From: Patescibacteria group bacterium
Lineage (GTDB): Bacteria; Patescibacteriota; Doudnabacteria; UBA920; O2-02-FULL-48-8
Direction: 5' to 3'
Length of the DNA stretch: 64,000 bases
NCBI GenBank assembly: GCA_036278915.1
Contig: DASUKB010000001.1
Location: 7,259-71,258, forward strand
Shown here in pieces: positions 49,540 to 50,319 of the stretch (position 1 is the first letter of the stretch; every line of letters starts with the position of its first letter). The position numbers and the translations under genes were made by a program. Under the pieces are notes generated by a model. It searched no databases. It was not told the DNA's origin and was given only the letters and a program-made list of their open reading frames with translations.

Positions 49540-49562
49540 TGGTACGTACGCCGTACGTACGG
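49540..49562. promoter_or_regulatory. dyad operator-like site TG-GTACGTAC-GCC-GTACGTAC-GG immediately after a TATACT -10-like hexamer
   Basis: same GTACGTAC-N3-GTACGTAC architecture as 4342-4364. Confidence 0.5.
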
Positions 49563-49578
49563 AAGAATCGAAACAAAT

Positions 49579-50319
49579 ATGCAAAAATATATTGCTGTAG
49601 TAAATCCAAAAATGGATGAAGATGATATTGCCAAGCTCATACGCCAAGGCGTTGCTGGTGCGATTTTTGAAATTTCCCATCAGAATTATCCGGTGGCCAT
49701 GCGGCTTATTGATCTGGTGCAGAAACTTGCCCGCAAATACAATCGTCCTGTTTCGCTGATTCAAGATGTTTCGGGTATGCAAGATCCTCTGGATTTACAG
49801 ATTGGCGCTCGGGGCGGCGTGCATTGGGTGGCCACAGACAATCCCGAACACGTAAAACTTGCACGCGGACTCAACAAACTCGCCGGCATTATTTACAAAG
49901 ATCGAAAACTGCCAAAAGGCATGACGGTAGACAGTGTTATGTCTTCAGACTTTGTAGACCCAGATGCCGAGATTGCCGGTCACGCGAGAGGGCAGATAAA
50001 ACATCTGATCGTAGAACATAAGGACCAGAAGCTTTTGGACGCTCTGTCTCACATAGCAAGTCACGCGTGCGCCGCGGGGATCGCAGTGCAGGATTTGGGT
50101 CTGGCTCAAGGACTGTCGCATCGGCGCGTAGGACAAAAAATAATCTTTGCACCAAAAACGGATACGGCCGCATCCAAGGCCGCCATTTACTGGGGCGTGC
50201 ACCCAGTGTTTGGCCAGACAGATATAATCGGCGCCATTAAAAACGCGAATATTTTGTCACGCGGCAGCCGAATGCTGGACGCTACACAACCTCGCCATAT
50301 AACGATCCATACAATTTGA
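49579..50319 (+). CDS. truncated or degenerate pyruvate-kinase-like protein (N-terminal barrel start plus C-terminal alpha/beta domain, catalytic core absent)
   Basis: KYIAVVNP...FEISHQNY...SLIQDVSGMQDP parallels PK KIVCTIGP...LNFSHGS...AILLDTKGPE; C-terminus AAGIAVQDLG...IIFAPKT...YWGVHPVF parallels the PK C-domain; only 247 aa. Confidence 0.5.
   Translation: MQKYIAVVNPKMDEDDIAKLIRQGVAGAIFEISHQNYPVAMRLIDLVQKLARKYNRPVSLIQDVSGMQDPLDLQIGARGGVHWVATDNPEHVKLARGLNKLAGIIYKDRKLPKGMTVDSVMSSDFVDPDAEIAGHARGQIKHLIVEHKDQKLLDALSHIASHACAAGIAVQDLGLAQGLSHRRVGQKIIFAPKTDTAASKAAIYWGVHPVFGQTDIIGAIKNANILSRGSRMLDATQPRHITIHTI

Follow-up and report, generated by a model that had tools for sequence, protein, structure and literature searches.

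What becomes of pyruvate kinase (PK) when a gene codes for only part of it? This question is raised by a gene in a 64,000-nucleotide (nt) stretch of the contig DASUKB010000001.1 from a Doudnabacteria member of the Patescibacteria, referred to here as the window. The gene encodes a protein of 246 amino acids (aa), which we call mini-PK and which an initial annotation had described as a PK derivative. Mini-PK is very probably derived from PK, functional, and not itself a PK. The reading that we favor overall, with a probability of roughly 0.5, is that of a dead PK paralogue serving as a noncatalytic partner of the enzymes of the phosphoenolpyruvate (PEP)-pyruvate step. All feature coordinates and residue correspondences are collected in Table 1.

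The translated protein begins with MQKYIAVVNP and ends with HITIHTI. Its length was first given as 247 aa, which needed correction, but the motifs quoted with it (KYIAVVNP, FEISHQNY, LIQDVSGMQDP, AAGIAV, IIFAPKT and YWGVHPVF) were all found. A 282-aa open reading frame (ORF) starting from TTG 49471 was rejected as read-through of the promoter region, all orthologues beginning with MQKY.

We then investigated the relationship of mini-PK to PK. As a single sequence, mini-PK remained under the cutoffs of all the curated PK family models and was thus not recognized as a member: the barrel model PF00224 matched residues 4-67 with 15.1 bits (cutoff, 30; E = 0.012), the C-domain model PF02887 (PK_C) matched residues 176-213 with 14.6 bits (cutoff, 28; E = 0.037), and TIGR01064 gave 31.9 bits (cutoff, 306.4; E = 5e-8). 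The short form was conserved in relatives, as a search of 5.8 billion proteins recovered at least 39 clusters of about 245 aa (47-67% identity; about 237-252 aa, with few exceptions due to insertions or longer ORF calls), several of them named Candidatus Doudnabacteria or Patescibacteria. It was also present in 13 metagenome loci from independent assemblies. Alignment of 36 mini-PK sequences revealed 24 invariant columns, and 32 of the 36 members matched PF02887. Using hhalign, the family profile aligned over 246/246 residues with a 91-sequence PK alignment (99.9% probability; E = 1e-31), and it matched the Staphylococcus aureus PK in three co-linear pieces. The same comparison with the single Escherichia coli PykF sequence gave a probability of 1.4% and a meaningless alignment, and the 91-sequence profile was used instead.

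An AlphaFold2 model of mini-PK was confident (pLDDT, 91.2; pTM, 0.88), and Foldseek returned only PKs among the best 50 matches listed, with query-normalized TM scores of 0.63-0.78. Profile homology together with the shared A-barrel and C-domain fold places mini-PK in the PK superfamily; by these sequence comparisons the homology is weak for the single protein and decisive at the level of the family. The profile-profile alignment and Foldseek therefore bear out the first description of a protein with the N terminus and the C domain of PK. In the Pfam/TIGR, profile and Foldseek searches, PK was the only family or fold matched. Matches to the designed beta-propeller "Pizza" (E = 1e-6 to 1e-9) were rejected as a repeat artefact, being sums of weak repeats with an E value of about 7 or worse each, since the alpha/beta model of mini-PK contradicts them; a LysM match (E = 0.017) was attributed to chance. 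Searching 1.84 billion representatives with a hidden Markov model of the family gave only 144 matches. Apart from the mini-PK family itself, fragments and a small number of reduced PK-like forms, these were proteins of PK length, mostly matched in the same two or three stretches, and those inspected were PKs. Database labels of mini-PK members were "hypothetical protein" or, for some members in JGI, "pyruvate kinase".

To describe what is kept of the enzyme, we use the numbering of E. coli PykF, whose sequence is identical to PDB entry 4YNG over 470/470 residues. The part of mini-PK that follows the position of the missing B domain (residues 68-122) comprised the DxxDLxFG motif, alpha3, beta4, alpha4, beta5, a shortened alpha5 and the start of beta6, in which Asp118 corresponds to Asp238. 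Further on, in a stretch of low alignment confidence, DPDAEI (residues 127-132) appeared to match the beginning of PK beta8 (D304..D307-AVM). Next comes a KH..EH linker motif common to the PKs of Doudnabacteria type, and alpha8 and the linker are squeezed into about 11 residues (approximately 137-147), most of alpha8 being lost. The initial annotation had mini-PK jump from the PK N terminus to the C domain, with the central barrel absent. This was correct for the lid and for PykF positions of approximately 242-301, but strands beta4 to beta6 and the equivalent of Lys220 are kept. In P0013-type members (263 aa; L004 7909-8700 and L053 3400-4191), a 17-residue insertion, GGQTRLPRRFDDYYPMH, lies in the loop that replaces the deleted half-barrel, and this loop therefore tolerates length changes.

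In PK, Asn, Ser, Asp and Thr residues form the K+ site, Glu and Asp are Mg2+ ligands, a Lys is catalytic and a Thr is the proton donor. Among Arg32, Asn34, Ser36, Asp66, Lys220, Glu222, Asp246 and Thr278 of PykF, only Ser36, Asp66 and Lys220 have kept equivalents in mini-PK. The MLSGE segment is deleted or replaced, and the B domain that a functional PK carries between beta3 and alpha3 is missing. Residue mapping to PykF thus agrees with the earlier statement that the catalytic ligands are absent: most are lost, and the lid domain in addition. Because the lid, the Mg2+ ligands, the Arg for the PEP phosphate and the proton-donor Thr are gone, PK activity appears unlikely. An unusually minimal yet active PK could be argued for from the equivalents of Lys220 and of Ser36/Asp66 and from the SH of the NFSHG motif (Ser33-His34), but the lack of a nucleotide-binding lid, the changes of Arg32 to Leu/Ile and of Glu222 to Arg, the loss of Asp246, Thr278 and MLSGE, and scores far under the curated family cutoffs make this alternative hardly credible.

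A gene that has lost so much might also be a decaying pseudogene, as was first suggested, or a full-length pyk gene shortened artefactually by assembly errors or a frameshift. Some relatives indeed carry a full-length PK in the same slot, and the plain label "pyruvate kinase" given by JGI to some members points the same way. However, the reading frame was neither disrupted nor unconstrained. The proportion of nonsynonymous differences (pN) was 0.17-0.36, compared to 0.66-0.90 for synonymous differences (pS), and the dN/dS ratio was about 0.06-0.16 where computable, saturation of the synonymous sites precluding a precise value. Mini-PK diverged slightly faster than the adjacent catalytic PK (identities of 66% versus 83% and of 48-50% versus 53-56%) and at about the rate of NUDIX in the single pair that allowed this comparison. 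We found no PK-like coding remnants in other frames around the gene, and no PK relic in window positions 48965-49578. The occurrence of a full-length PK in relatives, proposed at first as a sign of an artefact, is no proof of one, since the mini form recurs with the same architecture and length in dozens of independent assemblies and coexists with a separate, intact catalytic PK just upstream in three lineages. Moreover, the invariant columns, the confident three-dimensional model and the conserved start codon, promoter and terminator all speak against decay, and we regard a pseudogene or artefact as very improbable. As judged from the sequences and the model, mini-PK is a conserved, folded PK paralogue under purifying selection. 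Being a paralogue of an active enzyme, deprived of catalytic residues and yet selectively maintained, it shows the features of a pseudoenzyme.

The genomic setting of mini-PK provides most of the indications of its role. The slot was always located between a gene encoding an EndoQ-like PHP protein (window 47702-48964) and the NUDIX-DnaG-RpoD genes (window 51138-54553), and it was filled in different ways (states A to E in Table 1). C-less PKs (340-361 aa) keep the B domain and every catalytic motif and end at the boundary between the A and C domains; a contig scan with one of them, P0240, yielded 3 close relatives only. In a neighbor-joining tree of the A+B region, which is crude, C-less and full-length PKs interleaved in at least two places, which implies recurrent loss of the C domain or recurrent re-fusion. 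A PK(A+B) joined by deletion to the C module of a mini-PK should measure about 445 aa, as the fused PKs indeed do. In L001, L002 and L003, 11 of the 13 initial residues of the 23-codon ORF upstream of mini-PK match the N terminus of a Doudnabacteria PK, and the ORF ends in codons reminiscent of the basic tail of the C-less PKs; it resembles the trace left by a clean internal deletion of a C-less PK.

In state E, a canonical PK of 463 aa is accompanied by a PPDK/PEP synthase (PEPS)-like protein of 832-833 aa and a degenerate PK-like protein of 288-293 aa (L059 8001-12904; L060 4000-8882). The PK-like gene is separated from the PPDK-like gene by a 6-nt gap or overlaps it by 4 nt, an arrangement suggesting translational coupling. 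A 299-aa variant stands alone in the slot at L061. The 288-aa form aligned end to end with the mini-PK of the window (26% identity; E = 1e-16), and this alignment and the shared slot identify P0046, P0050 and P0052 as positional orthologues of an old paralogue. By genomic context, enzymes of the PEP-pyruvate step were the ancestral neighbors of mini-PK.

A second link between the two proteins was provided by the C domain. In the window protein, P0046, P0048, P0050 and P0052, this domain was 23-42% identical to its counterpart in Doudnabacteria-type PKs (E = 9e-7 to 1e-21), whereas matches to canonical PK C domains had E values of 1e-5 or weaker, mostly from 1e-3 to above 0.1, and that of P0046 to its own neighboring PK had an E value of 0.11. 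The N-terminal half-barrel showed no preference for Doudnabacteria-type PKs. By sequence, there is one C-domain subtype, with a KH..E linker, a shortened loop and GxRYIDA (GxRxxDA in mini-PK), which is either fused to an A+B unit or carried on a separate mini-PK beside a C-less PK. By a Rosetta-stone-type argument, this shared subtype suggests that PK(A+B) and mini-PK are functionally linked.

PK C domains are classical effector-binding modules, and the C domain is the best-conserved part across the reduced PK-like proteins; both points would suit a stand-alone allosteric sensor of fructose-1,6-bisphosphate (FBP), AMP or ribose-5-phosphate. However, the canonical effector phosphate loop (PykF T378-QGGKS-A384; T-x-S-G-x-S/T-A after C-beta1) is two residues shorter in mini-PK, where it reads S-D-L-D/G-x-A, and Asp172 in this loop is present in 35/36 sequences, which is hard to square with phosphate binding. 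The loop after C-beta4 is likewise shortened, and the C domain of the fused Doudnabacteria PKs equally has no effector loop. Loss of the phosphate loop makes canonical sensing of FBP, AMP or ribose-5-phosphate unlikely; the FBP/AMP sensor proposed in the initial annotation is weakened accordingly, and we consider such a sensor improbable.

We thus favor a dead paralogue that acts as a noncatalytic partner. Mini-PK could provide in trans a C-domain module, for oligomerization or regulation, to a PK consisting of A and B domains only; alternatively, it could modulate the PK/PPDK node in another way. In the lineage of the window, the catalytic partner would be encoded elsewhere in the genome, or mini-PK would keep a role independent of a partner. 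The loci differ in the co-occurrence of an active paralogue: mini-PK or its counterpart adjoins a C-less PK in 3 lineages and a PK plus a PPDK-like gene in 2, and stands alone at most others. That mini-PK works through a catalytic PK or PPDK partner is the tentative part of this reading, to which we give slightly less than even odds. "Prozymes" are dead paralogues that act as regulatory subunits, for example of trypanosomatid AdoMetDC and deoxyhypusine synthase. By analogy, mini-PK might be likened to them: it is a dead paralogue under purifying selection and lies beside an active paralogue in some genomes.

Several observations weigh against a partnership with PK. Unlike prozymes, mini-PK often has no active paralogue nearby. 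State C was the most common arrangement, mini-PK being found without an adjacent PK at most loci, including the window, and there was no PK elsewhere within the 64 kb of the window. Conversely, no relic of mini-PK was detected downstream of the lone C-less PKs of L012 and L013, which are close relatives of a paired lineage. As both lone mini-PK loci and lone C-less PK loci exist, neither partner obligatorily adjoins the other. In L007, mini-PK has its own promoter although the PK gene lies directly upstream. Retained Ser33-His34, Asp63 and Lys107 could, judging from the alignment, reflect residual ligand binding rather than scaffolding alone. Finally, PK was reported in about a third of the genomes of the candidate phyla radiation (CPR) (PMC7304191), and with such a patchy distribution some mini-PK genomes may have no PK at all.

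These observations lead to the alternative of a neofunctionalized protein independent of PK, which would bind a small ligand or a macromolecule or have a new activity; it would explain the persistence of mini-PK after loss of the neighboring pyk gene. Lone mini-PK genes being the commonest arrangement, and the intact mini-PK next to an upstream PK cut down to a 23-codon relic in L001-3, speak for it, as does the predicted strong promoter of the gene itself. In the alignment and the model, Ser33, His34, Gln62, Asp63 and Lys107 are invariant and located at the C-terminal ends of the barrel strands, on the former active-site face, and oxygen ligands are kept at 3/4 of the positions of the PK K+ site. 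In the deeper orthologues P0046, P0048 and P0050, on the other hand, conservation does not extend to His34, Asp63 and Lys107, and only the C domain and structural motifs are preserved. We considered a new metal site made up of Asp118, Asp127, Asp129 and His142 but dropped it, since these seemingly new positions are already conserved in PKs or in the linkers of Doudnabacteria-type PKs. Moreover, the only family and fold matches are to PK, and there is no consistent non-PK partner gene. Independence from PK is therefore a credible alternative, if on the doubtful side.

Beyond the noncatalytic partner that we favor, a broader scheme can be formulated: Doudnabacteria and related Patescibacteria would have a two-gene modular PK, made of a catalytic A+B protein and a dead, C-carrying mini-PK, which would have been repeatedly fused or split. 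Mini-PK would then be a genuine PK subunit or regulator, with a new role where PK was lost, possibly ligand sensing through the residual K+/Lys pocket. In this full form, we regard the scheme as rather unlikely.

The mini-PK gene was further examined at the level of its transcription. Sequence features indicate that it is a monocistronic unit with a promoter and a terminator of its own. In most relatives, an extended -10 element (TGCTATAAT or TGCTATACT) is located 5' of the mini-PK gene, and in L005 an identical block of 45 nt surrounds it. The end of the element (TGCTATAAT or TGGTATACT) lies exactly 6 nt from the ATG in L004, L007, L047, L052, L056 and L057, which implies leaderless mini-PK mRNAs in these six loci; leaders of about 30-40 nt were found instead in the window, L005, L046, L001 and L058. 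The hairpin upstream of the promoter was missed by the consensus terminator scan because of an internal loop in its stem. The block gaccaaacc..ggtcgtttt also occurs 5' of the orthologous gene in L005, L047 and L048.

The initial annotation had placed the promoter under an operator-like dyad. The dyad is real and its position plausible, but it was absent from all the orthologous promoters examined. It consists of two self-complementary GTACGTAC octamers, 11 bp apart, in the layout GGTACGTAC-GCC-GTACGTACG. The pattern GGTACGTAC-N3-GTACGTAC(C/G) has 2 copies in the window compared to 0.00 expected by chance. Each copy is closely preceded by a terminator-like T-run and a -10-like hexamer and is followed by an ORF on the + strand; in the case of the second copy, this is a probable small membrane-protein ORF about 65 nt downstream (within 4341-4991). 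The two dyad-bearing genes may share a lineage-specific regulator. The GTACGTAC dyad was not found in 13 or more related loci (Doudnabacteria loci and the orthologous promoters examined), and L005, the closest relative with DNA available, has a near-identical terminator, -10 element and leader end with 20 unrelated nt in the position of the dyad. Hence, the dyad is an insertion specific to this lineage, located between the -10 element and the start codon and, by sequence comparison, not a feature of the mini-PK family. As RNA, it would form an 8-bp hairpin, and the 71-nt segment 49530-49600 folded no better than shuffled sequences (z = -0.86). Its position suits either an operator or a 5'-leader hairpin.

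Among the neighboring genes, the 420-aa PHP-domain protein encoded at 47702-48964, which we take to be an endonuclease Q, contains a CPKCGKK zinc-ribbon motif, and its orthologues in related loci match the Pfam family MJ0043_C; its gene was the left neighbor of the PK/mini-PK slot in every lineage examined for which upstream sequence was at hand. A gene for a 200-aa HAD-family hydrolase lies directly 3' of mini-PK in most relatives (L004 8697-9305; L046-L058), with a 4-nt overlap in L004 and gaps of 8-37 nt in several others. Within the 64 kb of the window, no HAD gene is present, and tRNA-Ser(GGA) and a 65-aa ORF occupy positions 50320-50770 instead. The hydrolase was dropped as a specific partner of mini-PK, as it also adjoins a full-length PK locus and is absent from the window. 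A 112-aa DUF488 protein (window 50769-51107; best match, the "inactive DUF488-N3" subclade; E = 5e-39) is encoded between mini-PK and NUDIX. The rRNA genes of the window are unlinked and oversized: the 16S rRNA gene (2349-4107) has 1759 nt compared to a model of 1533 nt, and the 23S rRNA gene (41704-45172), about 37 kb away, has 3469 nt compared to 2925 nt and is followed by the 5S rRNA gene (46138-46253). tRNA-Ile and tRNA-Ala lie apart from them (21421-21904). Introns in rRNA genes are typical of CPR bacteria, and the insertions are probably introns.

Table 1. Features of the mini-PK gene and protein in the window (positions without a locus label) and in related loci. L and P numbers are our labels for related loci and proteins.
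Feature	Position	Strand	Remark
Mini-PK coding sequence	49579..50319	+	ATG 49579 to TGA 50319; 246 aa plus stop
Mini-PK residues 1-67	49579..49779	+	PykF 3-70; A-domain beta1-alpha1-beta2-alpha2-beta3
B (lid) domain, PykF 71-172			no mini-PK counterpart; residue 67 joins the DxxDLxFG motif directly
Mini-PK residues 68-122	49780..49944	+	PykF 173-241; barrel part after the B domain
PykF ~242-301			absent from mini-PK (ARGDLG with Mg-Asp, alpha6, beta7 with Thr278, alpha7)
Mini-PK residues 123-147	49945..50019	+	remnant in place of PykF ~242-350; low alignment confidence
Mini-PK residues 148-246	50020..50316	+	PK C (alpha/beta) domain, short Doudnabacteria subtype
PykF Arg32	Leu/Ile29
PykF Asn34	Glu/Ser/Gln31		variable
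PykF Ser36	Ser33		kept
PykF His37	His34		invariant
PykF Asp66	Asp63		invariant
PykF Thr67	Val/Thr64
PykF Lys68	Ser65
PykF Arg73			deleted in mini-PK
PykF Lys220 (catalytic)	Lys107		invariant
PykF Glu222	Arg109
PykF Asp246, Thr278			deleted in mini-PK
Terminator-like hairpin (CGACC..CCTG / CAGG..GGTCG) with T-run	49492..49527	+	probable end of the upstream transcription unit, as read from the sequence
Extended -10 element TGCTATACT of the mini-PK gene	49531..49539	+	promoter predicted from conservation
Extended -10 element upstream of mini-PK start in relatives	L004 7890-7908; L007 4328-4346		conserved consensus
Dyad GGTACGTACGCCGTACGTACG	49541..49561		2 nt after extended -10 element TGCTATACT; in the leader or over the transcription start
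Second perfect dyad copy GGTACGTACCACGTACGTACC	4343..4363		after a terminator-like hairpin, ~235 nt downstream of the 16S rRNA gene
Intrinsic terminator-like hairpin with T-run	50358..50384	+	39 nt past the mini-PK stop codon
tRNA-Ser(GGA)	beyond the mini-PK terminator	opposite
State A	L009, L010		one PK of 440-443 aa with A, B and C domains
State B	L006, L007, L008	same	C-less PK of 340-349 aa, then mini-PK 8-36 nt downstream
State C	window, L001-5, L046-50, L052-58, P0020 contig		mini-PK alone, often followed by HAD hydrolase
State D	L012, L013		C-less PK alone
State E	L059, L060		full canonical PK, PPDK/PEP-synthase-like gene, reduced PK-like gene
C-less PK genes	L006 6163-7212; L007 3264-4310; L008 6193-7215; L012 5001-6050; L013 3347-4432
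23-codon ORF MNKTKIIATIGPAKKKAEQTSLF plus stop	L001 8862-8933; L002 5362-5433; L003 3816-3887		~50 nt upstream of, and in frame with, P0037 mini-PK

To our knowledge, all descriptions of PK are of one polypeptide chain comprising A, B and C domains, and the searchable literature contained no account of the mini-PK family, of natural C-domain-less PKs, of a split PK or of truncated or pseudo-PKs in CPR bacteria. If the broader two-gene scheme is true, the lineage would provide the first natural example of a split PK and the first PK pseudoenzyme from bacteria. The lineage offers natural deletion experiments on PK, with a C-less catalytic PK, a separate dead paralogue carrying the C domain, and fused versions, and these variants bear on whether the C domain serves assembly or regulation. 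Since mini-PK is labeled "pyruvate kinase" by some pipelines, counting it in metabolic reconstructions of CPR bacteria would lead to the false conclusion that lower glycolysis is complete; recognizing it as noncatalytic changes the calls of PK presence and absence for Doudnabacteria.

Compared to canonical PK (E. coli PykF, PDB 4YNG/1PKY; Geobacillus PK, 2E28), mini-PK has 246 aa versus 470 aa. It lacks the B domain, PykF positions of approximately 242-301, most of alpha8 and the effector loop, and has lost Arg32, Asn34, Glu222, Asp246 and Thr278. The Doudnabacteria-type PKs of 440-445 aa (P0049, P0198, P0205 and P0214) occupy the same genomic slot and have the same short C-domain subtype, with a C-domain identity to mini-PK of 23-37%, but they keep a full A+B unit with every PK motif, whereas mini-PK has only a degenerate, half-stripped barrel. 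The reduced PK-like proteins of other Patescibacteria (P0046 and P0050, 288-293 aa; P0052, 299 aa; P0048, 248 aa) are all degenerate and B-less, with the same C subtype. They keep alpha5 and more of the barrel than mini-PK but have lost the equivalents of His34, Asp63 and Lys107; in L059 and L060, their genes lie after a PPDK/PEPS-like gene, in the company of a canonical full-length PK. Engineered human liver PK with a deleted B domain (PDB 7QDN and related 5SC* entries) is one of the best structural matches (Foldseek query-normalized TM score, about 0.75) and resembles mini-PK in the absence of the lid; its (beta/alpha)8 barrel is complete and its C domain is of the canonical FBP-binding kind, neither of which holds for mini-PK. 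Mini-PK is a novelty within the very well-known PK superfamily, and not a new kind of system.

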